A stretch of DNA of 64,000 nucleotides, from the NCBI GenBank assembly GCA_965208675.1, contig OZ242351.1, positions 3,872,001 to 3,936,000 of the forward strand, written 5' to 3'. The notes beneath the pieces are model-generated. The model searched no databases, was not told the origin of the DNA, and saw nothing but the letters and a program-made list of their open reading frames with translations. The position numbers and the translations under genes are program-made. Of the stretch, positions 2,408-24,937 are shown in pieces (within the stretch, counting starts at the first letter, position 1; each line of letters opens with the position of its first letter). Source of the DNA: Candidatus Poribacteria bacterium (lineage in GTDB: Bacteria > Poribacteria > WGA-4E > PCPOR2b).

Positions 2408-2469
2408 TTATCAAGGTTGCACTGCGGAAGGGTACGATGCCCCTTTCAAATCCTGCATTTAGCACCATA

Positions 2470-4206: not shown

Positions 4207-4225
4207 TAAACACCTCCGTGGAAAA

Positions 4226-4559
4226 GTAGTAGGCATACTCCGTATGCCGTCATCCGTGTCCCGATGCCGTCACCGGATTTCAATGTTATATGTGGAATTT
4301 ACGGCACACGGAGTGTGCCTACGACCATGCATCACCCGAAAAGTAGCAGGCATACTCCGTATGCCGTCATTCGTGTCCCGCTGCGTGCATTGGGATTCAA
4401 CGCAATATGTGGAATTTACGGCACACCGCGTGCGCCTACGACTATGCATCACCCGAAAAGTAGCAGGCATACTCCGTATGCCGTTACCCATGTCCCGCTA
4501 CTGGCGTCGGGACCCAATGCAATATGTGGAATATACGGCACACGGAGTGTGCCTACTAC
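4226..4559. repeat. three tandem 117-bp units of a palindromic REP/BIME-like element
   Basis: Units start at 4226, 4343 and 4460; each is bounded by GTAG(T/C)AGGCATACTCCGTATGCCGT ... ACGGCACACGGAGTGTGCCTAC inverted arms. Confidence 0.9.
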
Positions 4560-4596
4560 TTTGCCTTGAGCGTTAAACTGCGTAAGTCCTAACTTG

Positions 4597-6585
4597 TTAA
4601 ACCACAACCCGCCGCAGCCCTCGGCTCAACCGCCTTCCCAAAAGCACGCCGATAAATGTATAAGCAAATCCGCTAACGACAATCATCGTGAGGATATACC
4701 AATCTGCGTAGAAAAGGCGATGAAGTGTCATGCTCAGTTGAAAATCGGTGTATACACCGAGAGCATCGCAGATGCCGAATACAAATGCCAATACCAGGAC
4801 ATTCTTGCCTCTCTGCGAAATTAAAAATCCGAATTCGAGCAACAGCACAATCGTACCCGTGTAGAGCAGCGTAATCGGGGTGAGTAACCCAAGCGTGACG
4901 CCGCCCAACAGCACGCGAACCGCCGATACTAAGGTAATCACTCCTGATTTGGGGATGAGCATCAACAGAGATGTGAGCAAGGTGTAATACAATATTTCGT
5001 TAATTAACCCGTTAATGAGGAATGAAATTGGTCCCAGTAAAGCGGCGGTCAGATTGGCGAGTAGCGTCACCGGTACGCTAACCGCGATGAAAATGGTTGT
5101 TCCAAACAGGGTAATCAAGATGAGCTGTCTCGTCGAGAATCGCTTGAAAAACCCCCGGTGAAAGCGCAGCAGGAAAAACAGTCCAAGTCCGGTTGCGCCA
5201 AGTGCAACGCCGGTAACCATTAGAGCGTGCAGATTAGGCGTTTCGATGAGCAGCGGCCGTTTAGCACGCAGAACAGTTTTGTCGCTGCCCCAGATTTTGA
5301 TTTCGATGTCGCGGTCGTAACGCCCTGTGTGGGCAAAATCTGCGCCTTTCGCACGGGCGGAATCGGGATTGAAGTAGATTGGGAGCGGCACAGCGGTTGT
5401 AACCCCGCCTGCCAAGCTGGCGAACGCAACACTGCGATTCGTGCCGGCGTTGACGGCGTCGGGCGGTGCAAGAAAGGCAACAGGTTCTCCGCCTTTCGCG
5501 TCGAGATTTATTGCGCCGACAATAACGTGTATGATGTCCTGACTGTGGTTGCGGAGAGACACAGTTTGGTACGCAATGGGTTGAAAATAGTCCACAGCAT
5601 GAGCCTTTGCCCCGAACCATCCGCCTGCCTTGCCCAACAGCGGACGATGGTAGTAGATTGCATCTGGACGACGGCGTGAATCGACAACCCCTGTTGCGTC
5701 AGTGGGCATCGTAATGGCTTCAATCGAGAGTTGTGCGGCAATCTCGTCCACGGTTGCTGAACGCAGCGGCAGCGCCGCAGACCGGTTCCATTGCGTGCCG
5801 GATTCATCCTCAAAGAAGACCTTCGCGGCAATCTGCGCTGAATCGGGCAATTTTTCATTCGGAATTTTTAGTTCGAATTGGCTGTGCCAAATCTCCGCTT
5901 CAACTGTAAAATTCCCTCTCGCAGCAAATGCAGTTGCCTCTTCTCGTTCCAACTCATGACCGAGGAGGTTGGATGAGTTTCCGACACGGGGTTCGCTATG
6001 CCAAATTGATTGGGTTTGCAACACCTGGATGACTGAAGGGATGTAAAGCACAACCTTAAACCTAACGGGCGCTTCCAATCCGTTCCGCACCAAAACCGTC
6101 GCTGTCATTTCACTGCCGCCTAAGACCAACGATTTGGCGCTCCGTTGTTTCGGATCTGCTAGGGCATTCCGGGGGGATGGCGAACTCGGCTTGACCGTCC
6201 CGTATGGAATCGCAATCTCAATCGATCCGCGCGGATTGTTTGCGGGCGCCTCGGCGCTTATGGCTGCCGATTCGCCCGTGTCGTAGGTAATCTCAAATCG
6301 ATACCTTTCCCCTGCGTCCCAACGAAAATACAGCGGCTCTGTGCTGCGCGGATACCCGCCGAGATTGAGTTGAGCAACGACTTCTCCTTCCGAACCAAAT
6401 GCTCGGATGTATTTGACCGACTCTTGACGATTGGCATCAAAGTGGATTATTGCGCCCATCGGAATAAAGGCGGCACTCCATGAAGGTGGAGGTTGTTCGT
6501 TCTGCTCGGAACAGCCGCAATACGTAGCACACAATGGAATAAAGAGTGCTAGAATATGTAACGTAAACCTGTTTCCGTGTTTCAT
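4597..6585 (-). CDS. putative lipoprotein with a large soluble region and a C-terminal multi-TM domain (ECF S-component-like), B12-regulated
   Basis: N-terminal hydrophobic stretch ending YCGC; about 6-7 hydrophobic helices after residue ~450; first gene after the cobalamin riboswitch. Confidence 0.65.
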   Translation of the reverse strand: MKHGNRFTLHILALFIPLCATYCGCSEQNEQPPPSWSAAFIPMGAIIHFDANRQESVKYIRAFGSEGEVVAQLNLGGYPRSTEPLYFRWDAGERYRFEITYDTGESAAISAEAPANNPRGSIEIAIPYGTVKPSSPSPRNALADPKQRSAKSLVLGGSEMTATVLVRNGLEAPVRFKVVLYIPSVIQVLQTQSIWHSEPRVGNSSNLLGHELEREEATAFAARGNFTVEAEIWHSQFELKIPNEKLPDSAQIAAKVFFEDESGTQWNRSAALPLRSATVDEIAAQLSIEAITMPTDATGVVDSRRRPDAIYYHRPLLGKAGGWFGAKAHAVDYFQPIAYQTVSLRNHSQDIIHVIVGAINLDAKGGEPVAFLAPPDAVNAGTNRSVAFASLAGGVTTAVPLPIYFNPDSARAKGADFAHTGRYDRDIEIKIWGSDKTVLRAKRPLLIETPNLHALMVTGVALGATGLGLFFLLRFHRGFFKRFSTRQLILITLFGTTIFIAVSVPVTLLANLTAALLGPISFLINGLINEILYYTLLTSLLMLIPKSGVITLVSAVRVLLGGVTLGLLTPITLLYTGTIVLLLEFGFLISQRGKNVLVLAFVFGICDALGVYTDFQLSMTLHRLFYADWYILTMIVVSGFAYTFIGVLLGRRLSRGLRRVVV

Positions 6586-7380: not shown

Positions 7381-7460
7381 CAGTTAATCATGCACTCAAT
7401 TATCAAAAAGAACCAAAATGGAATATCATCGTCGTTTCCTTGCGCCGCACTATTCACCAT
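7380..7460 (-). pseudogene. micro-ORF/remnant with an SSB-type acidic tail (DDDIPF)
   Basis: Translates MVNSAAQGNDDDIPFWFFLIIECMIN*. Confidence 0.4.
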
Positions 7461-7507
7461 CACCTTTTTCTAACTATATTAAAGCGGTCCAAAGGATGGG
7501 GGTAAGT

Positions 7508-7621
7508 TCAGCTTAGTTTCATGATACCTTCGCGTTTTATGCCTCCGACGTTTGCGGGTTCTCCGGGGTTAACTCCCTTCTCGCTACCACTCATTAGCTG
7601 AAGGATTTCTGTTCTGTCCAT
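7508..7621 (-). pseudogene. 5' stub of a third GH108 lysozyme copy
   Basis: MDRTEILQLMSGSEKGVNPGEPANVGGIKREGIMKLS* aligns with MDRTKIIQLIIGSEKGINRREPANVGGISCDGVTKQSW; the stop falls at the Trp position. Confidence 0.85.
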
Positions 7622-10296: not shown

Positions 10297-11135
10297 AGCA
10301 GAAACGGGAATTGGCGAAACGCGGCAGCAAAGCATTTCCCATTAGCCTACTGTGTAATGTGCTCGGCTTGTCTCGAAGCAGTTTCTATTACGATTCCAAA
10401 ACCGAGGGTGATGCTCAGCTTTGCCGGCATATCGAGCAAATACGTTTATCAAATCACCGCTATGGGTATCGCAGAATCACAAATGAACTGCATCGTCAAG
10501 GATTGGTTGTCAACCGAAAACGGGTGCAACGTCTGGTTGGCGCACTAGGGCTTCAGGTACGTCCTAGGCGAAAGCGGGTGATCACCACCAACAGTCAACC
10601 CGGACGATATGCGTATCCGAATTTGCTCAAAGATTTATCAGTCACTTATCCTGACCAGATTTGGTGTGCAGATATCACCTATATTCCACTGGCTAGTGGT
10701 CAAGTGGCTTATCTGGCGTTATTGTTTGATGTTTTTACTCGAACCATAAGAGGCTGGGAGTTGTCGCGAAACATGTCAGTTAACCTGTTGTCTGGGGCTT
10801 TGAGAAAAGCATTAGCAAGACAGCATCGTCCCCAAATCCATCATTCAGACCGAGGTGGACAGTACATTGCTGAGAAGTATTGTCAGCAATTGAGAGCGAT
10901 AGCGTGCCGCATTTCCATGACGGACCGTGGGAAACCGTGGCAGAATCCATACGTTGAGAGTACGATTGGCAGAATCAAAGACGAGTATATCGTTGACTCC
11001 GAGTATCAGAATTTCCGGGATGCATACAACCAACTTAGTCCAGTATTAGATGTCGTGTATAATCAGAAAAGGCCTCATTCAGCGCTAGGCTATCGGACAC
11101 CTGCTGAATTCGAGGCAGCGTATAATGCAAACTAG
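10263..11135 (+). CDS. IS3 OrfB DDE transposase, reached by -1 frameshift
   Basis: The -1 frame is open from the AAAAAAAG site; YGYRRIT, WCADITYI, HHSDRGGQY, ESTIGRIKDE, YNQKRPHSALGYRTPAEFE. Confidence 0.92.
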   Translation, partial: KKSIELLRLSIKQKRELAKRGSKAFPISLLCNVLGLSRSSFYYDSKTEGDAQLCRHIEQIRLSNHRYGYRRITNELHRQGLVVNRKRVQRLVGALGLQVRPRRKRVITTNSQPGRYAYPNLLKDLSVTYPDQIWCADITYIPLASGQVAYLALLFDVFTRTIRGWELSRNMSVNLLSGALRKALARQHRPQIHHSDRGGQYIAEKYCQQLRAIACRISMTDRGKPWQNPYVESTIGRIKDEYIVDSEYQNFRDAYNQLSPVLDVVYNQKRPHSALGYRTPAEFEAAYNAN

Positions 11136-12751: not shown

Positions 12752-13384
12752 CTAATCATTCTGGTCGACATCATCGTCGTGCATCGCCGACGGGGTCGCC
12801 TTCTCAACTTCAAAGTATTCCTCGAGTTGAGCAAGCACATGGTTCGCACGGCGTTTCCATCCGACATGCCATTGTTTGAATTTATCCGGATTGAGGTCTA
12901 CAAGACGTTGATAATGCGCTAGTTTCTCCTCATGGAATCGAGTAATCAACTCATTGTCGATACCCGGGTCGGATTGCAATTCAATTTCAACGGTTTGTCT
13001 CCATGCGGCGACCGCCCCGCTGGTGTTGCGCCCCCATGCACCATCGTCAACGGCGCCCGCCATACGCTGGACAATCTTGACGGCAGCCTTGCCGGCGTTT
13101 ACAACGAAGTCGCTATAGATATATTGAAGAAATTCGGGAAGCTCCCACGTATGATACCTTTCAAGATAATCGACATAAAACGCCTCAACGATGTCTTGTC
13201 GTTTTGCGAGACCTTCCACGGATTCAGGCGCTTCCGGGAAGCGTTCGAGGTTTTTGGGACGCCAGATATCCCAGCTTTGTTTCGTGACGCCGTCGCATGA
13301 TATACCGCCGACGTTCGCAGGTTCTCTGCGGTTGATTCCCTTTTCGCTACCGATGATTAGCTGAATGATTTTTGTTCTGTCCAT
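12752..13384 (-). CDS. glycoside hydrolase family 108 (lysozyme/endolysin-like), copy 1
   Basis: SEKGIN...GGISCDGVT (EGG-type motif variant), DFVVNAG, VDDGAWGRNT, C-terminal KFxxWxxGWxRR peptidoglycan-binding-like motif. Confidence 0.75.
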   Translation of the reverse strand: MDRTKIIQLIIGSEKGINRREPANVGGISCDGVTKQSWDIWRPKNLERFPEAPESVEGLAKRQDIVEAFYVDYLERYHTWELPEFLQYIYSDFVVNAGKAAVKIVQRMAGAVDDGAWGRNTSGAVAAWRQTVEIELQSDPGIDNELITRFHEEKLAHYQRLVDLNPDKFKQWHVGWKRRANHVLAQLEEYFEVEKATPSAMHDDDVDQND

Positions 13385-14252
13385 TTAATTTTAACCTCAT
13401 TCCGTTAGTTTTTGCACGAGCGACTTCAACCTTTTTCGACCACGGGCTAGTCGATTGTTCACGACTGCCTCTCCGAGCCCCAACTCTTGAGCTATCTCCT
13501 TATGGCTCATACCGCTCAAGCGCAGTAGTAATGGCTGTTGTTGTGAGTCAGGAAGTTGTTCGATAGCCCTTGCAAGCCTGTCCCGCATGTCGACGAGTTC
13601 CTGTCGCTGTTCATCGCGCCGATGTGCAAACACTGCGGCGACATTCGATACCTCCGTTTCATTGGCGTCGCGAGAGAGTGAAAGGCACTCAATTAGTTTT
13701 TGGCGTTCTCGGTACTTTCTTGCTATGAGTTGAGATGCTATGCGGAACATCCAGTTTGGGAACTTTTGTGGATTCTTAAGTTCTTGCAGATTTTGCGAGA
13801 CCTCAATAAAGGTCTCTTGAACAATGTCTTGTGCATCTTCTTGAAAGCGAACGACAGTAAGGGCGATTCGTACCGACTATAGAGCAAGGAGAAAGCGTCC
13901 TTGTCACCCTTCAAAGCCTGACGAACCAATTCGGCGTCGCTCGATTTTTCGCCAACTCGCATCCCACTCCCCAGATCTGCAAAAAGTGATTGGGGTGTTT
14001 ACAACTTACCATTGTAAACATGTATGACTATATGGCTAAAATCTATCACTAAAAATGAAATTTTTTTTTCAAGGATATCGACTTGTAGGGCAATTTATGG
14101 TATGATTTTGATCACGGAAAGAGCGTTGGACGTGCACAATCCGCTTTTGCGTGGATGTGCTCGAAGCGGTTATGAAGACGCAAACTTGAGGCAATGAACC
14201 TGCGAGGTTGGGAAGTGGGGGTTGCGAATTGCCAAGCTGTGGTTTTTTGTGA
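12753..14252. repeat. ~1.5-kb direct repeat, copy 1 (partner 22700..24214)
   Basis: GH108 gene, ECF sigma and upstream leader align colinearly with the second copy. Confidence 0.95.
13397..13962 (-). pseudogene. ECF sigma factor pseudogene (copy of 23344..23925)
   Basis: 566 vs 582 nt: a 16-bp deletion between GCATCTTC/GCATTTTC micro-repeats near 13840 causes a frameshift. Confidence 0.9.
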
Positions 14253-14269: not shown

Positions 14270-15092
14270 AGGTTATGTTGACATTTCAACGTAGCCAGAT
14301 AAGCGTGGAGACGAAACTCAGAAATCCAAAATAACGGGCAGCTAGTTTCTCGAAACGAGAAAAGATACGACGGTACCATTTTATTTTGTTGATGAAACAT
14401 TCGACTAGATGTCTCTCTTTGTATAAATGGGGGTCGTATTTTCTTTGAGCACCACGATTCCGTCGAGGCGGTATCACCGGAATGGCACCATTGGCTTCAA
14501 TAACGTTGATAAATTCAACTGAGTCATATCCTTTGCCTCCAATTACATGCTGGCTGTTATATCCAACTATCAACGATTCGGCTTCAGCTATGTCGTGTCT
14601 CTGACCGGTGGTTAGCTGGAGTCTAAGCGGATTACCTAGTGCGTCAACTGTGATGTGAATCTTGGTGCTGAAGCCGCCGCGAGAACGTCCTAGTGCTTGG
14701 TTTTCGGCACCCCCGTTTTTTTTGAGGCGCCAGCCGCGCATGGGTGAGCCCGGCAAATGGTCGAGTCAATAATAATTGACTCCATATCTGGGTCGGAGGC
14801 AAAGTGGCGGTGCATATGTTCGAAGATTCCTATGTCACACCAGTTACTAAACCGCTTGTAGACGGAGCTCCAATTGCCATAGGCAGTTGGTAATAATCTC
14901 CATTGCACCCCGCTACGAGCCACCCACAAGACGGCTTCAACGAATCGTCGGGTGCCGGCTTCGTTGCGGACATAGATGTTGCAACAACCTAGAAGAAACT
15001 GGTATATCTTTCTCCATTAGTCATCAGGTAAGGTTATAGCCATCATGCTTAACATTATGCCACAACCTTATAAACAAATGTCAACAGAACCT
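14270..15092 (-). mobile_element. IS5-family insertion sequence with a nonsense mutation in orfA
   Basis: IRs AGGTTATGTTGACATTT / AAATGTCAACAGAACCT; orfA from ATG 15046 MMAITLPDD*WRKI...; A8 frameshift site near 14720; orfB 14286..14756 GRSRGGFSTKIH, GKGYDS, YKERHLVECFINKIK. Confidence 0.9.
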
Positions 15093-15304: not shown

Positions 15305-16113
15305 ATGGCAAGGTATATCTTTGGAGGAATGCTAATAATGTTGATACTGTTTGGCATTGCGTTAGGTATTATGATTGGGTTGTTTGGCTCTTTTGTCCCC
15401 ACGGCACATGCAGTGATGATTCTGATTCGGTTGTCGGCCTATGGCTTTTGGACGAAGGTAAAGGCTTTAGAACGTATGAGCATACCGGCAACTTTAAGCA
15501 TGCATGGATTCTTGGTGAACCCGGACATCGTGCCGAATGGGTGCCCGGCAAGTTTGGCACATGCTTAGATTTTTTGGGCAATCCCGGCGTTTCGATTGGT
15601 GATTCCGGCGAGCATACTCCGAATGAGGAAATAACGATAACAGCATGGTCGAAAATACTGGATGCCACGCGTGTAGGTTCATCTTGATGGTATCACCTCA
15701 ATCCAAATACGGTAGATGCATTTGCCGGCGCACAGATGCGCACCGAGAACAATAAAAAGAAGATACAGTGGGCATTCGGGTCGCCGGTTATACGCTTGAT
15801 AGTGGATTGGACGCCAGTTGAAGACGTATGGCAACATTGGGCTTTCACGCATAGCGTGCGCGACAACCGAATGGCGATATATCAGGACGGCAAACTATTT
15901 GCCGAGATGGCCGATTCCAGCGCACTCAACTCCACACAAGGATGGGGCAGGATCGGGCCTATATCAGGCCTCATTGATGATGTCGGTGTGTTCAACCGCG
16001 CACTAACCCAAGCAGAAATCCAATTTATCATGAGACATGGGTTCGCATCAGCGTTAGCCGTTCAGCGGGTGGGTAGGGTTGCCAGCACCTAGGGCGAGAT
16101 TAAGACCAAATTA
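15305..16113 (+). pseudogene. secreted LamG-like jellyroll protein with a Poribacteria-type C-terminal motif, pseudogene
   Basis: Signal peptide, frameshift near 15414, VVGLWLLDEGKG, WVPGKFG, WQHWAFT, GLIDDVGVFNRALTQAEI, ALAVQRVGRVAST*GEIK; two internal stops. Confidence 0.85.
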
Positions 16114-16119
16114 ACGTCC

Positions 16120-16856
16120 AAAACCGCACAATGTTCACGCGCGACAACCTCGAAGTCCTCCTTGGTATTGACAACGCCTGCATAGACCGAATCTATCTCG
16201 ACCAGCTGTTCAATTCCAAGCACAACTAGGCTGGACCGCCTGGTTTTAAAGTTGCCGGGGCAGCGTTTAAAGACGGGAGGACACTCACTGACATTGACGT
16301 TGAATGGATGGCTTGATAGCAGATGAACCTGCCTGCGCTAAGCAGGCTGCGCGACTCCGTGCCGTCTGATTCGGAAAAAGCGTATGTCGTGTATATGTCG
16401 GTCCGTTTGCTCTAGATGCGCCGGTTACTTAAGCCGACAGGCAGTATTTATCTACACGGCGATCCGACAATGGATCACTGGTTTAAAATCACGCTCGACG
16501 CCATTTTTTAGGAGAACAGGGTTCCTGAACAAACTCATTTGGCATAATTTCAAACCAGGTGCGAGTAAAACAAACGACCCACGAAATTATGGTTCGTTGT
16601 TGTTCTTCACAAAACAGGATATATTTACGTTTAACATTGACGCAACACTATTTGAATATGATAACATATCAATTTGAGATTTGATCGCGTAGATGAAAAT
16701 GGACGGCGATATAAAGTCCATTACAACTCGGATGGTACAACTAGCAAATCCTATATGAAAGCGGCGGGCAAACCCGACAATGTTCTCAAAATCCCATTTA
16801 TACAGGGCACCGCTAAGGAATGTGTCGGTTCTCCTACCCAGTACCGGAAAGCGTAA
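16120..16856 (+). pseudogene. site-specific DNA (N6-adenine/N4-cytosine) methyltransferase, heavily decayed
   Basis: DNLEVL...IDRIYLDQLFNSKHN* (DLIYLDPPFNS-like), VYMSVRLL*MRRLLKPTGSIYLHGDP, ...KECVGSPTQ (ERxGYPTQKP-like); many stops. Confidence 0.8.
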
Positions 16857-16958
16857 AGTAAAAAACGTCAATTACTCTTCCTTTAGTAATAAAGCAAAGG
16901 AAGAAACCAAACCAAATCCAGCGAAATTTCACGTATTGTGAAAACCATTCCGAATGTT

Positions 16959-17303
16959 TCATTTCAGTAGCATGACAATAACCGCAACAACCGCTGCGAT
17001 ACCGCCAAGTCCACCTACGCCCGTGAATAACCAAGTCAACAGCGAAAGTTGCCCGTCGCGCCTATTGCCATCCGCCTCCAATACCTTCACGCGTGTTTCC
17101 TGGTCAACAGTAGATTCCTGCATCGCTTTCAAGAGCGTTTCAACTTTGGCGCCCTGCGCTTCCGATGCTTTAAGTCGAGCGTCATGTTCGCCAATCGTTG
17201 CACACTGTTTCTCAAGCCGTTCATGATGGTGATCCATGCGAACTTCCATCCTTGAAACAACATCAAGAATTCTATCCAGCTTTGCCTCGACGGTGTCAGC
17301 CAC
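16959..17303 (-). CDS. phage-like coiled-coil protein with a C-terminal TM helix (XhlA/holin-accessory-like)
   Basis: Heptad pattern ...HDARLKASE...ETRVKVLE followed by LLTWLFTGVGGLGGIAAVVAVIVMLLK. Confidence 0.55.
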   Translation of the reverse strand: MADTVEAKLDRILDVVSRMEVRMDHHHERLEKQCATIGEHDARLKASEAQGAKVETLLKAMQESTVDQETRVKVLEADGNRRDGQLSLLTWLFTGVGGLGGIAAVVAVIVMLLK

Positions 17304-17501
17304 CTACGGTACCCCCGCACCCGGTATCATATAACGAATTGGAGATATTGTCTGGCGCGTGCACGGTCAGAGTAAGTCGCCAATTCTCGTCACCGCACAT
17401 GTCACACACCGTGCCTTAATAAACGGCACAATAAACAGACAACTTTCCCCACGTCTTTGGTTTCTTAATCGCAAATGCAATTTAAATCGGGTTCAGCTCT
17501 T

Positions 17502-17593
17502 GTAGAGTGGGTTTGGCCGACGGCGAAACCCAAGGCTTTTGAAACCACCAGACGACGGAAAAGCGTTGGGGCACGGTGTTTAACCCAACCTAC
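17502..17593. repeat. REP-like element (GTAG...CTAC)
   Basis: GTAGAGTGGGTTT...AAACCCAA and TTGGGG...AACCCAACCTAC arms. Confidence 0.6.
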
Positions 17594-17600
17594 GAAAACT

Positions 17601-17762
17601 GAAAATAGTCCACAGGATGAGTCTTTGCTCCCGACCATCTATCTATCTTTCCCAACAGTGGACGTGGGTAGTAGAATACATGTCGACGATGACGTGAATC
17701 ATCTACCCTTGTTGCGTTAGTGGGCATCGTAATGTCTTCATTTGAGAGTTTTGTGTGCAATC
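17601..17762 (-). pseudogene. diverged copy of an internal segment (5583..5743) of the B12-regulated membrane protein gene
   Basis: GAAAATAGTCCACAG...CCCAACAG...GGTAGTAGA...GTGAATC...TGTTGCGT.AGTGGGCATCGTAATG.CTTCA.. is colinear with 5583..5743 in the same orientation. Confidence 0.85.
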
Positions 17763-17872
17763 ACCGGTTACCTTGGGCACATCAGCCAAATCATATTTTT
17801 CAGACGGCTTAACCGCCGCCCGGGAATCACGCACACCGCATCAAGAATGTTCATAGTGTATTTAGGGGCAAT

Positions 17873-18485
17873 CTAATACGTGTACAGTAAAGCCCACTTA
17901 TCTTCGCATGATAGAGTTTCTTTGTCGTGCTCGTTTTCAGCAGACCCCGCGCGCATTGTGTAATGCGCCCATTCCGAACAATTGCCATGCCCTTGGTTGG
18001 GGTCGTCGGGATCATACTCGACATGATCCAAGCCGGCGCCATGCCCCATTTCATGCATAAGCACATTCAAAAGGCAAACCTCAGTACTACTCGTAGAGCC
18101 GTGCAAATCCCAATCATAATACTTATTTAGCATTATATCGATTTCAGTCAAATAATTTCCACTCCGCCACCGGCGGGTGTGAGCTAAATCAGCCTCATCT
18201 TCGGGTTGGCCTAGTCAGGTCCAGCCGACAACGTTTTTGCCATCCTGGACGTTTGGCACATGTGTCGTGGTATGTGCCTTGAACTCATAATAGAAACTGG
18301 ATGTATCACCGTCGTGTTCAACATTTGACCATCTACTAGCTGCCGTGTTGACATCATTTGTAAAACGGAACTATCCTTAGTTGTACCTCTTCGCAGGTAA
18401 GTGTGTCATGGCAATGCGGATAAACGGTAATGGCTATGCCGATAGCCAGCCCCAATACGACAACTGCCGTCACTAATCTCTTCAT
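17873..18485 (-). pseudogene. matrixin-like metzincin, cassette 3 (pseudogene)
   Basis: ATG overlaps the partner stop (ATGA); MKRLVTAVVVLGLAIGIAITVYPHCHDTLTCEE, deletion/frameshift near 18370, DGKNVVGWT* stop, then HEMGHGAGLDH, YTM, LSCEDKWAL. Confidence 0.85.
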
Positions 18486-19186
18486 TTGCCGCTCCTTTTA
18501 ACTTGTTTTGCGCTGTTGATTAAGCGCGTGGATAGCGCATCAGAAACCACCCCGCTCGTTCCGTTCGCCTCTAGTTTTATGTCATTTTCCAGCCTGCGTG
18601 CAGCGTCGGGGTTTTTTATAAACGCTTTAGCCAGATTACTTGCCAAATCCAAAGACATCTTCATAGGCTTCGCCCTGTTGTTTTTGGCATATCTAAATTT
18701 GACATAATCGTCTTTCACAAGCCGCTTGCCGTAGCGCTGCTTGTAAAGGCGCCGTCCGCCATAAGCGTAAGTCGTATTATACTTGTCGTCCTCCCCTTTT
18801 TTCAAAAACAACATCGCTTTTTCACCGACAGTGAATTTTATGCCGGGCGAGGTTTCTTGCGTAAGCACCTCACCTGCGCTCGGCACATACGCAGTGCCGT
18901 CTTCGTGCATAAATTTGATATGCGTATCGCCTAAATTGGCTTCGCCCTTAATAAGCGTTTCAATGCGAAATGTAATATCCGTACAAATCGAATCAGTGCC
19001 GCTCTCAGTCACATCCTCCCGCCAAACACCCGTTAGCAATTCAACTGTACCAATTGCGACTATATCGCAATTCTCGATGGAGTTCAACAAGCCGTAAGAC
19101 GGAATGTCTCGCCTTATGGCGGGCGTTCCCGCCTCGCACATACTCGCGCACAAAAGCGCAATCAACGCCACAAATACATATTTCAT
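18482..19186 (-). CDS. secreted TIMP/NTR-like OB-fold candidate, cassette 3 partner
   Basis: Signal MKYVFVALIALLCA; DIVAIGTV...TDITFRIETLIKG...FTVGEKAMLFL; paralog of 19958 and 21435. Confidence 0.7.
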   Translation of the reverse strand: MKYVFVALIALLCASMCEAGTPAIRRDIPSYGLLNSIENCDIVAIGTVELLTGVWREDVTESGTDSICTDITFRIETLIKGEANLGDTHIKFMHEDGTAYVPSAGEVLTQETSPGIKFTVGEKAMLFLKKGEDDKYNTTYAYGGRRLYKQRYGKRLVKDDYVKFRYAKNNRAKPMKMSLDLASNLAKAFIKNPDAARRLENDIKLEANGTSGVVSDALSTRLINSAKQVKRSGK

Positions 19187-19257
19187 TTGAATTTCTCCGT
19201 TTGTTAGAGTTCATGAAGCTGCCCGAAGGCAGCCCGTCCTCGGTTTGCTAACCGCCG

Positions 19258-19956
19258 TTATTGATAACCATATTTGTGGTGCAAAGCGAATTTATCTTCG
19301 CATTCCAAACTTTCATAAGCGTGATTCTGGTAGCAATAGCCATACATCGTATATGGGCGATACTCAGAACACGAATCATACACGTCCCACATTCCCGCGA
19401 AATGCCCAAATTCGTGAACCAGAACATTGCGCATACAATAATAGCTGCCCGTCAGCGGCTCGCTATGCACTTTCCACGATTTATAATAATTAAGCGCAAT
19501 ATCGCATTCCCGAATGTTATTTGTGCCTGACCACACCCACCTATAGTATATGCCGTAAGTGGGGGAATTTTCACCCAAACCGCGCCACCCAACAACGTTC
19601 TCACCATCCATTGTCGGCTGAGTTCCGGGCCCGCCCGGCTTCTTAGTCGTCGTTCCGTCGTAAGTCGGTCTAAATGCTATTGTTCCGCCTTGATAAGACA
19701 CATCGTACCACTTTTTCGCCGCCTCTTTAGCATCGTTCAACATATTTGGCTGACCTGAATAAGTTGGATTAACTTTAAAGTCGATCTCGTGGTTGGCGCC
19801 GCCAATGCTCCATTTACGGTTCTTCCCCTGGCCGCCTTCACAAACATCTCGCACTACTTGTTCACATGGAAGCGTGTTATGGCAGTGCGAATATACCAAG
19901 ATGGAAATGCCGAACACCATCATAACTGCGATTATGATTGCAACTGTTTTTTTCAT
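19258..19956 (-). CDS. secreted matrixin-like (M10-type) zinc metalloprotease, cassette 2
   Basis: Signal MKKTVAII...VYS|HCH; DGENVVGW; HEFGHFAGMWD; Met-turn YTM; LECEDKFAL; GGAGG RBS inside the upstream gene. Confidence 0.85.
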   Translation of the reverse strand: MKKTVAIIIAVMMVFGISILVYSHCHNTLPCEQVVRDVCEGGQGKNRKWSIGGANHEIDFKVNPTYSGQPNMLNDAKEAAKKWYDVSYQGGTIAFRPTYDGTTTKKPGGPGTQPTMDGENVVGWRGLGENSPTYGIYYRWVWSGTNNIRECDIALNYYKSWKVHSEPLTGSYYCMRNVLVHEFGHFAGMWDVYDSCSEYRPYTMYGYCYQNHAYESLECEDKFALHHKYGYQ

Positions 19957-19957
19957 T

Positions 19958-20677
19958 CTAGTCGTCCTCCGCATTTTGAATTATTGTTCTTGCACTGGAT
20001 TTCAACTGTGTAACCAGTGTGCTTGACAGTTCAATCTTAGGAGATGTCGCCCCGCGCGCCAACGCCTTGATTTGATTTTCTAATGGGACTACGGCATCTT
20101 TATTGGCCACGGCCGCCTTAGCCAACTCAACTGTTAAATCTAAAGGCATTTCAACAGGAACAACACTATCACTATCCCGCTTGTAAGCAAAATTTGTTTT
20201 CTCGTCGCTAACAGCCCGCTTGCCATACTTATAAAGTATAACGTGGAGTCGGTCGTAAAGATAGTTAGTATAGTAATCGTCTTCGGCTATACTCGTTGTC
20301 ATGAACAACATAACCTTTTCGCCGACTTCAAATGAAGGCTCACTAGATACGTCCAGCGTCAGCACTTCATTTTCCGATGGTATGAAGGCTGTTCCGCCTT
20401 GTATCATAAATTTGACGTATCGTGACCCCGTATTGGGCGTGCCTTTAATAAGCGTGTCAACCCTTACGAGGACATCTGTAGTTAACATAGACCCGCCATC
20501 GTACACAATGTTGTCGCGCGCATGATAACTCAGCAGTTGCACTGTCCCAACAAAAACAACCTCGCTCTTGTCGATACATTTGAGCAGGCTATAATCATCC
20601 AAGTCCGGCTGTTCTGTCGCACCATACGCCATTACCGCACACAAAACCACCAGCAACGCCACAAATACATACTTCAT
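19958..20677 (-). CDS. secreted TIMP/NTR-like OB-fold candidate, cassette 2 partner
   Basis: MKYVFVALLVVLCA; SEVVFVGTV...TDVLVRVDTLIKG...IQGGTA...PSFEVGEKVMLFM. Confidence 0.7.
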   Translation of the reverse strand: MKYVFVALLVVLCAVMAYGATEQPDLDDYSLLKCIDKSEVVFVGTVQLLSYHARDNIVYDGGSMLTTDVLVRVDTLIKGTPNTGSRYVKFMIQGGTAFIPSENEVLTLDVSSEPSFEVGEKVMLFMTTSIAEDDYYTNYLYDRLHVILYKYGKRAVSDEKTNFAYKRDSDSVVPVEMPLDLTVELAKAAVANKDAVVPLENQIKALARGATSPKIELSSTLVTQLKSSARTIIQNAEDD

Positions 20678-20722
20678 TTGAAACCTCCCTTTGTTTGAGT
20701 CAAAAGAATTGTTTCCCTAAAA

Positions 20723-21433
20723 TTATGGTACTCGGTATTTTTGATCTAGCGCATACTTATCTTCGCAACGCAAATCTTCTCTAAAGTGTTCGCCGCCTGC
20801 TGTAATGCCATTCATTGTGTAATACTGGTAATCCTCACACCATCGTGACTGATCAGGCCAGCCTGCATTGTAGTAAACATCCATTAGACCCGCCATGTGA
20901 CCGAACTCATGTGCCAGAACGTCCCTAAGGCAAAAATAGCCAGGATTTGCCGCCCTATTTGCATGACTGGTGAAATCTTTATAATAGTTCAATCCTATAT
21001 CTACTTCTACTATCCTGTTCCCGACAGCCCATATCCCCGCACTAGCGACCTTTCCTTGTCGACCGCCTAATTTACTCGACCACCCAACGATATTCTTATC
21101 ATCACTAGAAAAAATATCATCTTCGGAAATGTCAGTCCGGCCAGCATAGGTATACTGAAATGCAATCGTGCGATTCTGAAAGGATATTTTAGACCACGCT
21201 TTAGCCGCTTTCTTGGTATCCGTTAACAACCCTGGCTCACCATCCCTATCGCTATTTACCCGATACTCAACCTCATATATATCATCGTCATTGATAATCG
21301 CAGGATCCCATACCTTGTTACCTCGAACTGTCATCGGATTTTCATAAGAGGCATCATTATGGCAGTGAGAATAAGCCATAACAGGCAAAAACAACACAAC
21401 AAACAGGCTAATTACAAAAGCACTAATACGCAT
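20723..21433 (-). CDS. secreted matrixin-like (M10-type) zinc metalloprotease, cassette 1
   Basis: Signal ...MAYS|HCH; DDKNIVGW; VEVDIGLN; HEFGHMAGLMD; YTM; LRCEDKYAL. Confidence 0.85.
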   Translation of the reverse strand: MRISAFVISLFVVLFLPVMAYSHCHNDASYENPMTVRGNKVWDPAIINDDDIYEVEYRVNSDRDGEPGLLTDTKKAAKAWSKISFQNRTIAFQYTYAGRTDISEDDIFSSDDKNIVGWSSKLGGRQGKVASAGIWAVGNRIVEVDIGLNYYKDFTSHANRAANPGYFCLRDVLAHEFGHMAGLMDVYYNAGWPDQSRWCEDYQYYTMNGITAGGEHFREDLRCEDKYALDQKYRVP

Positions 21434-21434
21434 A

Positions 21435-22142
21435 CTATTTTTCCTCCTTTTTAAGTATTTTGTCTGCTTTCCTCTTCAATTCAGTCGCAGACGCAGATGG
21501 CAGTACGATAGAATGCTCTGTTCTACTAGACCTGCCGACAAGTCCCTTGATCTCGTTTTCAATTGCCTTTGACGCATTATTGTCCGTAAGGTAAGACTGG
21601 ATCAATACTTTTGTCAAATCTAGCGGAATAATTGTCCGCTTTGCCTTCGATTCGGATTCATATAGAAATTGCACCTTATTATTCTGAATTGGCCTTTTCC
21701 CAAAAACCTCCATGTGAACGCAAAGCCGTCCGTGCGGCCAATCCTGATAGTCTACAGAATCGCCGACTCGCAAAAACAACAACACGCTCTCACCAATGTC
21801 AAATTCTACATTTGGCAACATCGTAAGCGACCTGACCTGTTCATGTTTTGGTATGTACGCAGTCCCACCCCTAATAGCAAATTTAACGTGGTTGGTGCCG
21901 ACATTCGGCTTGCCTTTTATAAGCTGATCGATTCTAACAAGAACATCTGTCAATATCGTACCATTGCCCACCTCTTCCGTGTAATAAGCGTTCATTAACT
22001 CGATAGTGCCAACAACTATGATGTCACTCTTGTCCGTCATATCTAACACGCCATGCCAGCCAATTTCTTCAGATGTCATCCCAGCTCCCTCAATAATACC
22101 AGCACACAGCAAAACCACCAACACCACAAAAACATACTTCAT
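21435..22142 (-). CDS. secreted TIMP/NTR-like OB-fold candidate, cassette 1 partner
   Basis: Likely start is ATG 22142 (GGGAGGG RBS), MKYVFVVLVVLLCA; SDIIVVGTI...TDVLVRIDQLIKG...IRGGTA...EFDIGESVLLFL. Confidence 0.7.
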   Translation of the reverse strand: MKYVFVVLVVLLCAGIIEGAGMTSEEIGWHGVLDMTDKSDIIVVGTIELMNAYYTEEVGNGTILTDVLVRIDQLIKGKPNVGTNHVKFAIRGGTAYIPKHEQVRSLTMLPNVEFDIGESVLLFLRVGDSVDYQDWPHGRLCVHMEVFGKRPIQNNKVQFLYESESKAKRTIIPLDLTKVLIQSYLTDNNASKAIENEIKGLVGRSSRTEHSIVLPSASATELKRKADKILKKEEK

Positions 22143-22187
22143 TTGAACCCTCCCTTGTGTTCGAGTCAAAAGAATTGTTTCCCAATA

Positions 22188-22196
22188 ATTATACCA
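22188..22196 (-). promoter_or_regulatory. extended -10 promoter heading the cassette array
   Basis: TGGTATAAT about 45 bp upstream of ATG 22142. Confidence 0.55.
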
Positions 22197-22665
22197 AAAT
22201 TGCAGTACCAGCGACGCCGAAATCGCGCCGGCACGACCTAAGATTTTAACTACCGTTAGTTTTTTTACGGCCACCAGATATTTTGCAATTATAGCATTAT
22301 TCGCAATCGGTAAGGAGTACGACGGTTGCCAAGTTCGGCGACCGCGCTTACCCATCACTTTCACACAGTGTAGTTGATTGCGGGGTTGCAAATCCCCAAC
22401 TAACGTAAGTTTAATCGCACTTACCATTTTCAAGCTTGCACCTATAACCATTTTCCAGTGAATTGATTTGATTTCCTCCAACCATGAATACGTCGCAGAA
22501 ATCAGAATATTCAAGTTAACCGCGACTAGGTTATATTTGCGACGGATTAATTTCCATTCGTCAATTCATTCAATCACCCACCTTTCTTTTAATGCTTGCG
22601 TTAAGTCTTTTACAGGTCATTGCGATGGCATAAACGGCATTTCAATAGTCTGTATTAACTGCTGG

Positions 22666-23331
22666 TTATATACGGCTCGATGCCGTGTGGTCATCGTTGT
22701 AATCATTCTGGTCGACATCATCGTCGTGCATCGCCGACGGGGTCGCCGCCTCAACTTCAAAGTATTCCTCGAGTTGAGCAAGCACATGGTTCGCCCGGCG
22801 TTTCCAACCAGCATGCCATTGTTTGAATTTATCTGGATTGAGGTCTACAAGACGTTGATAATGGGCTAGTTTCTCCTCATGGAATCGAGTAATCAACTCA
22901 TTGTCGATACCCGGGTCGGATTGCAAATCAATTTCAACGGTTTGTCTCCATGCGGCGACCGCACGGCTAGTGTTGCGCCCCCATGCACCGTCGTCAACCG
23001 TTCCCGCCATACGCTGAATAATCTTGACGGCAGCCTTGCCGGCATTTACAACGAAATCGCTATAGATATATGGAAGAAATTCGGGGAGTTCCCATGTATG
23101 ATACCGTTCAAGATAATCGACATAAAACGCCTCAACGATGTCTTGCCGTTTTAGGAGGCCTTCGACGGTCTCAGGCGCTTCGGGGAATCTGCCGAGGTTT
23201 TTGGGACGCCAGATCTCCCAGCTCTGTTTCGTGATACCGTCGCATGATATGCCGCCGACGTTCGCAGGTTCTCTGCGGTTAATTCCCTTCTCGCTACCGA
23301 TGATTAGCTGAATGATTTGTGTTCTGTCCAT
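22666..23331 (-). CDS. glycoside hydrolase family 108 (lysozyme/endolysin-like), copy 2
   Basis: Near-identical to 12752..13384; RBS GAGGT overlaps the sigma stop codon. Confidence 0.75.
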   Translation of the reverse strand: MDRTQIIQLIIGSEKGINRREPANVGGISCDGITKQSWEIWRPKNLGRFPEAPETVEGLLKRQDIVEAFYVDYLERYHTWELPEFLPYIYSDFVVNAGKAAVKIIQRMAGTVDDGAWGRNTSRAVAAWRQTVEIDLQSDPGIDNELITRFHEEKLAHYQRLVDLNPDKFKQWHAGWKRRANHVLAQLEEYFEVEAATPSAMHDDDVDQNDYNDDHTASSRI

Positions 23332-23343
23332 TTTACTTTAACC

Positions 23344-23925
23344 TCATTCCGTTAGTTTTTGCACGAGCGACTTCAACCTTTTTCGACCGCGGGCCAGTCG
23401 ATTGTTCACGACTGCCTCGCTGAGCCCCAACTCTTGAGCTATCTCCTTATGGCTCATACCGCTCAATCGTAGTAGTAATGGCTGCCGTTCTGAGTCGGGA
23501 AGTTGTTCGATTGCCCTTGCAAGCCTGTCTCGCATGTCGACGAGTTCTTGCTGTTGTTCATCGCGCCGATGCGCAAGCACTGCGGCGACATTCGATACCT
23601 CCGCTTCATTGGCGCCGCTAGAGAGTGAAAGGCACTCAATTAGTTTTTGGCGTTCTCGGTACTTTCTTGCTATGAGTTGAGATGCTATGCGGAACATCCA
23701 GTTTGGGAACTTTTGTGGATCCTTAAGTTCTTGAAGATTTTGCCAGATTGCAACAAAGGTCTCTTGGACAATGTCTTTAGCATCTTCATGGTTGCGCATT
23801 TTCTTGAAAGCGAACGCGTGTAGGGACGTTTCGTGCCGACTACAGAGCACGGAGAAAACGTTCTTGTCGCCCTCCAAAATCTGACGAACCAATTCGGCGT
23901 CGCTCGATTTTTCGCCAACTCGCAT
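23344..23925 (-). CDS. ECF sigma factor (sigma-70 regions 2 and 4)
   Basis: DAKDIVQETF...FPNWMFRIA...AIEQLPDSER...GMSHKEIAQELG...RLARGRKRLK. Confidence 0.9.
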   Translation of the reverse strand: MRVGEKSSDAELVRQILEGDKNVFSVLCSRHETSLHAFAFKKMRNHEDAKDIVQETFVAIWQNLQELKDPQKFPNWMFRIASQLIARKYRERQKLIECLSLSSGANEAEVSNVAAVLAHRRDEQQQELVDMRDRLARAIEQLPDSERQPLLLRLSGMSHKEIAQELGLSEAVVNNRLARGRKRLKSLVQKLTE

Positions 23926-23957
23926 CCCACTCCCCAGATCTGCAAAAGTGATTGGGG

Positions 23958-23982
23958 TGTTTACAACTTACCATTGTAAACA
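23958..23982. promoter_or_regulatory. 9-7-9 palindrome (also at 13996..14020)
   Basis: TGTTTACAA-CTTACCA-TTGTAAACA between the divergent sigma genes. Confidence 0.55.
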
Positions 23983-24039
23983 TGTATGACTATATGGCTA
24001 AAATCTATCACTAAAAATGAAATTTTTTTTTCAAGGATA

Positions 24040-24068
24040 TCGACTTGTAGGGCAATTTATGGTATGAT
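24040..24068 (+). promoter_or_regulatory. sigma70-type promoter
   Basis: TCGACT-17 bp-TATGAT with extended TG. Confidence 0.5.
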
Positions 24069-24370
24069 TTTGATCACGGAAAGAGCGTTGGGGGGACTCA
24101 ATCTAGTTTTTACGCGGATTCCCTCGAACCGGTAGGAAGACGGAAACTTGAGGCAGCGAACCTGCGAGGTTGGAAAGTGTGGGTTGAGAATTGCGAAGTT
24201 GTGGTTTTTTGTGAAGAGATTGCTCGGTTGTATCCACTAAAATTTGAGTGATAGTTTGTTGAAGTTCTGATGTTGCTTTTTTACGGTCTTCTCCAAGTAT
24301 TGATAAATTGCAAATAGGGAAAGGGCCGTACTGATAGTTTTCATTCAACAAGCCTATTTTTGAAGCGGGC

Positions 24371-24937
24371 GTGCCGATGATCCCTGATGAAGTCTATGTG
24401 CAAAAAACTATCGAAGGGGATGTGGAATCATTTAATGAGCTTGTGCAGCGTCATCATACCAGAATCTACGGGTTAGCTTACCGCATGCTGTCCAATCCTG
24501 AAGATGCGGCGGACGCAACACAAGAGGCGTTTTTGGAAGCGTATAAATCGATAAAATCGTTCCAATTCCAATCAAAGTTTTCGACGTGGTTGTACCGAGT
24601 CGCTATCAATACGTGCCAACAATACATCCGCAAATCCGATTCTCGGGCGCGTACGCTCTCGGCATACACAAAAAGCGTTGCAGAAAACGACGCGCAATAT
24701 GACAGTGATTGTCCGGATCGGATTTTGGTGAAATCGGAGAGCGATCGGATGGTACAGGAGGCAATCAGCCAGTTGCCGCCTAAACAGCGGATAGTTGTTA
24801 GTCTATTTTACATGCAGCATCTCAAATATCATGAGATTGCCGAAGTGCTAGATTGTCCGGAAGGGACAGTGGCATCGCGATTAAATACGGCGATAAAGAC
24901 CCTCAAGTCAAAACTGCAAAACCCGCACCATCTATAA
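24371..24937 (+). CDS. ECF sigma factor (RpoE/SigW-like)
   Basis: DAADATQEAF...SKFSTWLYRVAIN...QLPPKQR...YHEIAEVLDCPEGTVASRL. Confidence 0.92.
   Translation: MPMIPDEVYVQKTIEGDVESFNELVQRHHTRIYGLAYRMLSNPEDAADATQEAFLEAYKSIKSFQFQSKFSTWLYRVAINTCQQYIRKSDSRARTLSAYTKSVAENDAQYDSDCPDRILVKSESDRMVQEAISQLPPKQRIVVSLFYMQHLKYHEIAEVLDCPEGTVASRLNTAIKTLKSKLQNPHHL

Follow-up and report, generated by a model that had tools for sequence, protein, structure and literature searches.

Tandem cassettes for a predicted TIMP-fold protein and an MMP-like protease in Poribacteria: a candidate bacterial inhibitor–metzincin system

Tissue inhibitors of metalloproteinases (TIMPs) are, to our knowledge, regarded as the sole endogenous protein inhibitors of matrix metalloproteinases (MMPs), and as an animal feature. 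The serralysin-type systems of bacteria (AprA/AprI, Inh) consist of a secreted metzincin and a small beta-barrel inhibitor, encoded nearby, that blocks the cleft and guards the periplasm. Their inhibitors are eight-stranded barrels, unlike the NTR-fold proteins described below, their proteases leave the cell by type-I export, and they form no arrays and show no hypervariability. In a Candidatus Poribacteria bacterium (GenBank assembly GCA_965208675.1), within a 64,000-nt stretch of contig OZ242351.1 (positions 3,872,001 to 3,936,000; hereafter the window, in whose coordinates all positions are given), three tandem two-gene cassettes each encode a secreted protein that we call the partner (A1, A2, A3) and a secreted MMP-like protease (B1, B2, B3). 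The partner is modelled as an NTR/TIMP-type OB barrel, and is predicted to sit over the catalytic cleft of its own protease. By analogy with TIMP/MMP, potempin/KLIKK and AprI/AprA, the genes would encode a metzincin along with its inhibitor. A protease with a linked protein inhibitor is a known kind of system; what is new here, and well supported, is an unannotated NTR-fold family in a hypervariable array with an endolysin-like context.

The one earlier bacterial TIMP-like case in the literature searched is a Phyre2 prediction in Listeria monocytogenes, where a metzincin, Mtz, and a TIMP-like lipoprotein, Tim, form a pair of phage origin (PMC8235301). Judged by its description, Mtz-Tim is the closest published case. 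Both systems place a secreted bacterial metzincin beside a predicted TIMP-like protein, and both adjoin phage lysin genes and mobile elements. They differ in that mtz precedes tim, whereas the partner gene comes first here; that Tim is a lipoprotein cleaved by Mtz, whereas our partners have no lipobox; that the Met-turn is AIML there and YTM here; and that Listeria has single pairs, not hypervariable arrays. Firmicutes relatives of Tim, like the partners here, carry an ordinary, signal peptidase I (SPI) signal peptide, and serralysin inhibitors are mentioned in the same paper (PMC8235301). Among the papers listed in our literature search there is no other bacterial TIMP-like pair, though supplementary lists may name relatives, and a search on Poribacteria metalloproteases found nothing relevant. 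Nor did A2 or B2 match any of 50,697 phage records by tblastn.

The potempins of Tannerella forsythia offer another parallel. Each inhibitor open reading frame (ORF) lies immediately upstream of its KLIKK peptidase gene and is co-transcribed with it, and each potempin is specific for the linked enzyme and protects the producer (PMC9890683). Upstream-inhibitor order and coupling are common to both systems, and karilysin, a potempin target, is the best structural match of the protease described here. Potempins, however, are outer-membrane lipoproteins of 98–132 residues with other folds (PotC reaches only Z 5.2 against our model of A2) and with a lipobox that our partners lack; KLIKK enzymes have prodomains and type-IX C-terminal domains, whereas B1 and B2 have no prodomain; and the six KLIKK pairs span different catalytic classes, whereas the cassettes here are paralogous.

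The cassettes and their two protein families

The array lies on the minus strand at 22142–17873 and comprises three cassettes (22142–20723, 20677–19258 and 19186–17873), each with a partner gene followed by a metzincin gene. All six ORFs, for secreted partners of ~235 aa coupled to metzincins of ~236 aa, lie where the original prediction, made from the sequence alone, had placed them. In cassette 1, partner A1 (22142..21435; 235 aa), with a signal peptide, an NTR/TIMP-like OB barrel and C-terminal helices, matches a partner profile built on A2 at E 5e-88, and is separated by a 1-nt gap from B1 (21433..20723; 236 aa), a prodomain-less MMP-like metzincin with the motifs HEFGHMAGLMD and YYTM. Cassette 2 encodes A2 (20677..19958; 239 aa), the partner chosen for modelling, and B2 (19974..19258; HEFGHFAGMWD and PYTM), which has 238 aa, or 232 aa if it starts at an internal ATG at 19956; this alternative start gives a 1-nt gap to A2, the same as in cassette 1. 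In cassette 3, A3 (19186..18482; 234 aa) is intact and under purifying selection despite its dead protease, the pseudogene B3 (18485..17873), with which it shares an ATGA overlap. The first frame of B3 runs for 43 codons before a stop, and an in-frame TGA directly follows DGKNVVGWT; profile positions 42–61 are deleted, and the match found by profile search of the genome contains one TGA, two TAG and one TAA. A remnant of 92 aa retains HEMGHGAGLDH and HYTM. The motif HExGHxxGxx(H/D) and the YTM Met-turn that had been claimed are present in B1, B2 and the B3 remnant, and the reported decay of the third protease is borne out by its stops and deletion. Each cassette is most likely a two-gene unit whose products are made in a fixed ratio.

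The paralogues are strongly diverged, as had been noted: the three partners share 33–41% identity, and B1 and B2 share 36% (E 2e-44). Judging by their sequences, they are real relatives and not chance resemblances. A profile search of the whole genome (4.89 Mb, one contig) finds these three partner and three protease copies only. The head of each partner gene carries a conserved leader (22102..22192 on the minus strand, with copies at 20637–20726 and 19146–19200) that includes the 5' untranslated region, the ribosome-binding site AAGGGAGG and the first codons, MKYVFV. From the ribosome-binding site through the first ~14 codons this DNA is 78–85% identical in all three, and the 40 nt 5' of A1 and A2 are 88% identical. 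Upstream of A3, at 19187–19257, a GC-rich hairpin (GGGCTGCC-TTCG-GGCAGC) stands where the conserved leader would be expected; it may be a terminator or an RNA-processing site between cassettes 2 and 3. A scan for promoter-like sites (22, against 13.5 +/- 3.3 expected) and terminator-like sites (4, against 8.0 +/- 2.7) did not delimit an operon.

All three partners begin MKYVFV and have a hydrophobic N-terminus with an A-x-G/A cleavage-like site. Their predicted mature N-termini, ATEQ, AGMT and GTPA, are variable across 16 intact pairs from this and related genomes, and there is no invariant or near-invariant Cys among 18 family members. We considered whether they might be lipoproteins and rejected this: the Cys in the signal peptide is preceded by V-L-L or V-V-L, which is no lipobox, and is not conserved. 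Sequence searches put no name to them. A1, A2 and A3 match no Pfam family (hmmscan, E<=1), and hence neither TIMP (PF00965) nor NTR (PF01759); scans of NCBIfam and PHROGs gave nothing useful; a PDB sequence-profile search with the partner family gave irrelevant matches only (best E 0.018, a mitoribosomal protein); and a cluster look-up of eight proteins yielded no names. A viral structure library, likewise, gave no match at E<=1e-3. Among 1.84 billion representative sequences the partner profile finds 639 matches at E<=1e-3; the family has no Pfam or NCBIfam name.

The predicted structure is more telling. An AlphaFold2 model of A2, made from the 18-sequence alignment (pLDDT 89.5, pTM 0.82), consists of the signal peptide, two short helices, a beta barrel (residues 40–178) and three C-terminal helices. 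In an exhaustive structure comparison (VIA-align, 48,161 PDB chains), 12 of the 19 top rows are NTR-module proteins: NtA, TIMPs, PCOLCE, meteorin and complement C3/C4/C5. Agrin NtA (1jb3) comes first (Z 8.2, 120/127 residues), followed by the N-TIMP-3 of a TACE complex (3cki_B; Z 8.1, root-mean-square deviation 3.3, 116/121 residues), the NTR module of PCOLCE (1uap; Z 7.3), the C345C domains of C3/C4/C5 (Z 5.6–6.9) and TIMP-1 (1uea_B; Z 6.5); these alignments span 109–141 residues. Generic OB folds rank below these and align over just 57–90 residues. Since best scores of Z 7–8 are common in this search, we place weight on the coherence and coverage of the NTR rows rather than on the score. The first Foldseek row for the same model is TIMP-2 (E 2.9e-3), and in a protein-language-model atlas the nearest named clusters are TIMP, NtA and NTR at 0.83–0.89, which are leads only. 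In its predicted fold, then, the partner is a five-stranded OB barrel packed by terminal helices, as NTR modules and TIMPs are, and the original guess of a TIMP/NTR-type OB fold agrees with near-full coverage of the module in structure search.

Fold and family are different matters, nevertheless. In TIMPs the N-terminal Cys1 (of CxC) binds zinc through its free amine and carbonyl, and disulfides are conserved; the NTR/C345C module (PF01759) has six conserved Cys. The partners share with animal TIMPs and their MMP targets (MEROPS I35; PDB 3cki, 1uea, 1br9) the OB barrel with flanking helices (116/121 residues of N-TIMP-3), a target that is likewise a metzincin of MMP-like fold, and a predicted position over the cleft that includes the mature N-terminus. 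They differ from TIMPs in having no Pfam TIMP/NTR match, no Cys1/CxC and no conserved cysteine; in an extra C-terminal helical part of ~60 residues; in a main predicted contact made by an internal strand, not an N-terminal wedge; and in occurring as cognate one-to-one gene pairs, whereas TIMPs are few and broad in spectrum. Because Cys1, disulfides and Pfam match are all missing, the partners are not members of the TIMP or NTR families, though they share the TIMP fold; in sequence hallmarks, therefore, the likeness to true TIMPs fails. Apparently, they form an unannotated and widespread NTR-fold family.

The signal peptides of B1 and B2 end in ...(A/V)YS and are followed by HCHN. Among 19 members of the protease family, HEFGH, Y205, T209 and M210 are invariant and D197 is nearly so; a Cys-His at the start of the mature chain and a CEDK motif near the C-terminus are also invariant. 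Most copies, the intact ones included, have an Asp as third zinc ligand, and a few have a His (B3 and one copy in the relative that we label G002). HExxHxxGxx(H/D) together with the Met-turn marks these proteins as metzincins. There is no prodomain, the mature chain starting about one residue before the invariant C-H. In matrixins of the M10A family the third residue to bind zinc is a His, and a prodomain carries the cysteine switch, PRCGxPD. Matches of our proteases to Peptidase_M10 (PF00413) are sub-threshold (17.1 bits for B1 and 14.2 for B2, against a gathering cutoff of 24), and MMP-11 is the best hit in a PDB profile search (E 0.005). Snapalysins (1c7k, 4hx3), which have the HExxHxxGxxD motif in common with them, reach just E 0.5 in that search, and there is no Pfam match to M7. 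The model of B2 has a pLDDT of only 76.5; in Foldseek its best match is karilysin (2xs4; E 3e-5, TMt 0.65), then MMP-11, -2, -12 and -13, and most of its 36 matches at E<=1e-3 are MMPs, with serralysins lower. On this model the protease is a metzincin of MMP/karilysin-like fold that lies outside the Pfam matrixin cutoff, with an Asp ligand as in snapalysins and no cysteine-switch prodomain; the name matrixin-like, proposed earlier, suits it at the level of fold. The invariant Cys-His, (H/x)CH(N/D/E), occupies residues 30–33 of B2 and 22–25 of B1; it might serve as a miniature cysteine switch or as a tip that binds zinc, or its Cys might form a disulfide with that of the invariant CEDK.

A predicted complex and a linked pair of families

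The complex was modelled from residues 20–239 of A2, residues 30–238 of B2 and zinc, in three runs and with three controls. The cognate pair was predicted to bind, with ipSAE values of 0.89, 0.89 and 0.92, whereas no control exceeded 0.01; the partner had a pLDDT of 92 or more, and at least 85% of the 141–150 contacts were common to the runs. The mark that we applied is reached by 58 of 80 solved complexes and by 2 of 110 mismatched pairs, calibration counts that hold roughly here, where custom alignments and zinc were included. On the protease, the interface takes in 184, H187, E188 and H191 of the active-site helix, D197 as third ligand, 199–206, 212–215 and the segment 131–150; on the partner, it comprises the mature N-terminus (20–24), 53–65, 96–112, 130–137 and 170–174. 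The lowest-error pairs join protease residues 143–148 to partner residues 110–106, in antiparallel. Residues 140–147 of the B2 model form the fourth strand, just before the active-site helix; this strand lines the upper rim of metzincin clefts. The partner, in short, is predicted to sit over the catalytic cleft of its cognate protease, its own N-terminus included in the contact.

Gene neighbourhoods tie the two families together from one side. We surveyed 61 related Poribacteria genomes, taking matches at E<=1e-30 as strong, and as neighbours genes no more than 300 nt apart on the same strand. Partner matches occur in 30 of the genomes and protease matches in 18. A partner precedes 26 of the 30 strong protease matches, and 32 of all 47. 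Of the four exceptions, one, in G014, has an IS4/5 transposase in the partner's place, an ORF considered as a diverged partner and rejected (hhalign probability 0.2%); one lies directly behind a GH108 gene, and two have a partner 1.1–1.5 kb upstream. The strict one-to-one pairing of the original prediction stands from the side of the protease, but not from that of the partner, as 27 of 54 strong partner matches are unlinked.

The two families also meet within two database proteins. P0157 has a partner-like barrel (11–157; hhalign 97%), Peptidase_M10 (280–359; E 3.8e-12) and CWB2 repeats, and P0160 has a partner-like barrel (8–158; hhalign 98%), a TIG domain and Peptidase_M10 (496–657; E 2.7e-10); in both, the barrel stands directly behind the signal peptide, N-terminal to M10. 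A metagenome-assembled genome (MAG) from Planctomycetales has a weaker partner-M10 fusion (hhalign probability 73%), and MAGs from Ignavibacteriota and Eiseniibacteriota have a partner-like ORF directly upstream of a long ORF that bears the protease domain. A Myxococcales relative has no partner-like N-terminus. The protease, then, seldom occurs without a partner, whether this is a separate protein or a fused domain at the position of a prodomain; the partner domain has wider roles. In another genus of Poribacteria, a partner-like domain is the N-terminus of long leucine-rich repeat (LRR) proteins (P0114, P0123 and P0109), and long LRR-protein frames of 750–877 aa are found in G010, G011, G012, G017, G018, G022, G023 and G028. 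Because of the unlinked half and of these LRR fusions, we do not regard the partner domain as dedicated to proteases.

Across a sample of the phylum, the protease family occurs in 16 of 176 genomes (E<=1e-10), in three taxonomic families, and in none of 112 genomes of the family f2. The premise of a sponge symbiont fits the host lineage, Poribacteria, and the presence of this stretch in sequencing runs labelled sponge metagenome. In other genera, proteases of 352–373 aa carry a C-terminal FlgD_ig domain (L035:5029-6108, L036:5259-6350, L038:4763-5881; P0176, P0183), which in addition gives sub-threshold matches to CHU_C and, for L035 and L038, to Por_Secre_tail. Proteases with such FlgD_ig/Por_Secre_tail-like C-termini belong to genera g2 and g5; the domain looks like a sorting or anchoring domain, and is absent from the copies in the window. 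In G013, a gene with collagen-triple-helix repeats (L032:6061-7089) comes right after a partner-protease pair, and an insertion sequence (IS) transposase right before it; this neighbour may be due to chance.

Evolution and surroundings of the array

The three closest genomes have the array at the same site, and in the same order: an extracytoplasmic function (ECF) sigma factor, a GH108 protein, a variable number of partner and protease genes, and a 114-aa tail-anchored protein, with a divergent ECF/anti-sigma pair beyond the locus. Between genomes of the genus the flanking proteins are 81–98% identical. The best matches of A1, B1, A2 and B2 in relatives are only 35–49% identical, and for 16 intact pairs the best cross-genome identity is 40–53%. 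A 3899-nt contig from another sponge-metagenome run matches both flanks (17351–17809 and 22220–22568), and the ~3.0 kb between them, in place of 4.4 kb in the window, are unlike in sequence. Neither this hypervariability nor the endolysin-like/ECF context formed part of the original prediction. In four sequencing runs cassette 1 (20692–22113) is not covered at a likeness of at least 90%, a gap that of itself proves nothing, and cassettes 2–3 have low read cover in one of the four. Joints at the leader repeats (20684 to 22220/22311) occur in two runs, and give no more than a weak hint of recombination there.

Partners and proteases descend together. For the 16 intact pairs, picked by hand from nine genomes—broken cassettes were left out, as were low-scoring divergent pairs in G010, G013 (its second pair), G014, G021 and G022—the identity matrices of the two families correlate at r 0.78 overall and r 0.58 within the genus, values that none of 5000 permutations reaches, and for 11 of the 16 one and the same other cassette supplies both the closest partner and the closest protease. 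The correlation shows cassette-wise descent, and is no proof of co-adaptation, because related sequences share history. Columns in the predicted interface are the more variable, both in the partner (2.44 vs 1.67 bits, p 3e-8) and in the protease (2.13 vs 1.75 bits, p 0.009).

Proteases often decay behind their partners. By hand classification, a partner precedes 31 protease genes, of which 18 have an open, full-length frame, one is ambiguous, and 12 are broken, truncated or fragments; nine of these 12 follow a full-length partner. Only three strong full-length proteases, counted by hand, have no partner directly upstream. Cassette 3 is a case in point. A3 and its orthologue in G002 are 93.5% identical (dN 0.049, dS 0.23, dN/dS 0.21 over 234 codons), and the G002 protease is split too; the frame of the C-terminal remnant starts at profile position 125 in both genomes, which fits a shared ancient stop. 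B3 and the G002 protease remnant match piecemeal, with 74–84% DNA identity. On these figures, A3 has been kept by selection without a protease of its own, which argues against a mere dedicated foldase and fits an inhibitor useful against other proteases, whether paralogous or foreign.

The gene string of which the array is part begins with an ECF-type sigma factor (23344..23925, minus strand), at the same place in the relatives G001 and G002. Next, directly upstream of the array, is a gene for an endolysin-like muramidase with GH108 and PG_binding_3 domains (22666..23331, minus strand; PF05838, E 2e-5; PF09374, E 6e-4). It has no signal peptide, and it matches a PHROG endolysin family (E 2.8e-16). 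GH108 genes adjoin the arrays in G001 and G002, where further copies are interspersed within them. Downstream of the array is a single-copy gene for a 114-aa coiled-coil protein with a C-terminal membrane helix (16959..17303, minus strand), 92–95% identical beside the arrays in G001 and G002, with only weak PHROG matches and no convincing family. The ECF/GH108 module (22666–24214) is duplicated ~9.95 kb away, in repeats that are 89–95% identical; the second copy (12752..13998, minus strand) has a 94% identical GH108 gene, its ECF sigma gene is broken, and it lies between IS genes (rve, 10311–11135; DDE, 14286–14756). A third GH108 remnant, with three TGA stops, lies near 7421–7621. The region looks like a decaying series of ECF/GH108 modules, and the ECF/GH108/tail-anchored string has the look of a phage lysis cassette that was domesticated. 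Between an IS and the array there is also a lone 118-aa Laminin_G_3 (concanavalin-like) fragment (15736–16092), with a 48% identical match within a longer frame (~280 aa) in G001.

The string invites comparison with type 10 secretion, in which a phage-derived holin and a peptidoglycan hydrolase are encoded with Sec-exported periplasmic cargo such as typhoid toxin, and the hydrolase has no signal sequence (PMC13284979). Here too, a muramidase without a signal peptide belongs to a string with Sec-exported cargo genes, and there is likewise a dedicated regulator, the ECF sigma factor. The likeness is one of gene layout; no holin was recognised among ORFs of at least 30 aa at 16800–24400. Among 20 window ORFs scanned with Pfam, a set that excludes 1346–6585 and everything beyond 49 kb, there is no secretion system of type VI (T6SS), type VII (T7SS), contact-dependent inhibition (CDI) or Rhs kind; the 20 are housekeeping genes (Mfd, SurA-like and others), transposases or unassigned.

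What the pairs may do

We think it probable that each prodomain-less MMP-like protease is kept latent by its cognate partner, an inhibitor that blocks the cleft and does the work of a prodomain in trans, and that the pairs co-diversify. The partner, an NTR/TIMP-type OB barrel with a C-terminal helical extension, and the protease, a catalytic domain alone, would both be exported by Sec. After export each partner would bind its own protease one-to-one across the catalytic cleft, partner strand 104–110 pairing antiparallel with the upper-rim strand 143–148 while the mature N-terminus (20–24) and several loops cover the zinc site. Bound, the partner would keep the enzyme latent and protect the producer; the enzyme would become active once the complex is released and the partner lost. 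The endolysin-like string may help periplasmic complexes to cross the wall. Whole cassettes would be duplicated, change rapidly, above all at the contact surface, and be replaced between conserved flanks, with proteases often decaying and partners persisting. To the computed gene anatomy, folds, predicted interface, linkage, fusions and evolutionary pattern, this mechanism would add inhibition, latency, an export route, activation and a target, which might be the sponge matrix, defence proteins of the host or a bacterial envelope.

Several observations weigh against it. The complex score is just the model's own confidence, and part of it could be memory of a fold pair, because MMP-TIMP complexes have already been solved; sequence similarity to the TIMP/MMP pair is nil, and the main predicted contact, through strand 104–110, differs from that of TIMP. 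The antiparallel, substrate-like pairing predicted in the cleft would fit a substrate as well as an inhibitor, and in Listeria the TIMP-like Tim is in fact cut by its metzincin (PMC8235301). At the level of fold, Foldseek with the A2 model gives zero matches at E<=1e-3, a Z of ~8 is merely the usual best-hit level for the structure search, and the chemical hallmarks of TIMPs are absent: there is no N-terminal Cys, and no conserved Cys whatever. The comparison of interface variability mixes interface with surface, its control being all other columns and not surface columns only. Finally, half of the partner matches at E<=1e-30 (27 of 54) are not followed by a protease in the next 300 nt, and partner-like domains also occur joined to leucine-rich repeats.

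Were the protease a weapon against neighbouring bacteria or rival sponge strains, the partner would be its periplasmic immunity protein, and extra and orphan partners would protect against the proteases of other strains. We hold such effector-immunity pairs to be unlikely, yet much of the evolutionary pattern is what they would leave: a hypervariable array between conserved flanks (35–53% against 81–98%), a 3899-nt metagenome contig that joins both flanks around ~3.0 kb of unlike sequence, and a contact surface more variable than the rest, with IS elements nearby. The unlinked partners (27/54) are of a piece with this, as are the 12 broken or truncated proteases behind partners, 9 of which follow a full-length partner, beside only 3 strong full-length proteases without one directly upstream, and the constraint on A3 (dN/dS 0.21) next to a dead protease 74–84% identical in DNA to the G002 remnant. 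What speaks against weapons is delivery: the scanned parts of the window hold no delivery domain or secretion-system gene, and a free protease of ~200 aa would have to cross the outer membrane of its target. The partner gene, moreover, comes first here, while effectors usually do. The predicted binding is common to this explanation, to the lysis explanation that follows and to cognate inhibition, and these differ in purpose; effector-immunity differs from inhibition just in what the protease is for.

On the Listeria pattern, the cassettes would be accessory to cell-wall action or lysis: cleavage of the partner by the protease would free a TIMP-like fragment that, alone or with the protease, acts on the envelope together with GH108. 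In Listeria phages the mtz-tim genes follow those for holin and lysin, Tim is a substrate of Mtz, and the pair makes cells more sensitive to lysis (PMC8235301). The arrays of our genus stand directly behind GH108, with GH108 copies interspersed in those of G001 and G002, and the partner strand predicted in the cleft has a substrate-like, antiparallel register. Nine partner-protease loci in five other genera, however, have no GH108 match (blastp, E<=1e-5) within their ~4-kb flanks, the gene order is opposite to that in Listeria, there is no lipobox, and an interface as large as that predicted (141–150 contacts) resembles a stable complex, not the encounter of an enzyme with its substrate. We regard this explanation as improbable. 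Least credible to us is that the partner is a folding or secretion chaperone only, an intermolecular foldase, or that the two proteins are neighbours without contact. A partner-like domain at the prodomain position in fused relatives and the tight translational coupling would suit a foldase; partners that remain under purifying selection after the loss of the protease, and half of which stand alone, would be unexpected of a dedicated one, and the predicted complex covers the active site.

If cognate inhibition is the right reading, a larger picture can be drawn, about which we are distinctly doubtful as a whole. Sponge-symbiont Poribacteria may run a prokaryotic MMP/TIMP-type system from a hypervariable, cassette-swapping locus, with an NTR-fold inhibitor for each prodomain-less protease and with an endolysin module, domesticated and controlled by an ECF sigma factor, to release the periplasmic complexes. 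Their surfaces might co-diversify in an arms race with sponge matrix or immune proteins, or with rival strains, while orphan inhibitors guard against foreign proteases.

The partners constitute a second, and seemingly much wider, bacterial TIMP-like family; gene order, domain fusions and a strong complex prediction all link it to MMP-like proteases. Their endolysin-like context hints at muramidase-assisted release outside the pathogens in which it is known. For studies of specificity the arrays offer ready-made combinations of protease and putative inhibitor, cognate and non-cognate, and they may open a route to selective metzincin inhibitors. They also suggest a concrete and testable means by which a sponge symbiont, abundant and uncultured, may deal with the matrix of its host or with competitors. 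If the interpretation is true, animals would not have invented the muzzling of metzincins by the NTR fold; bacteria would have come to it as well, or earlier.

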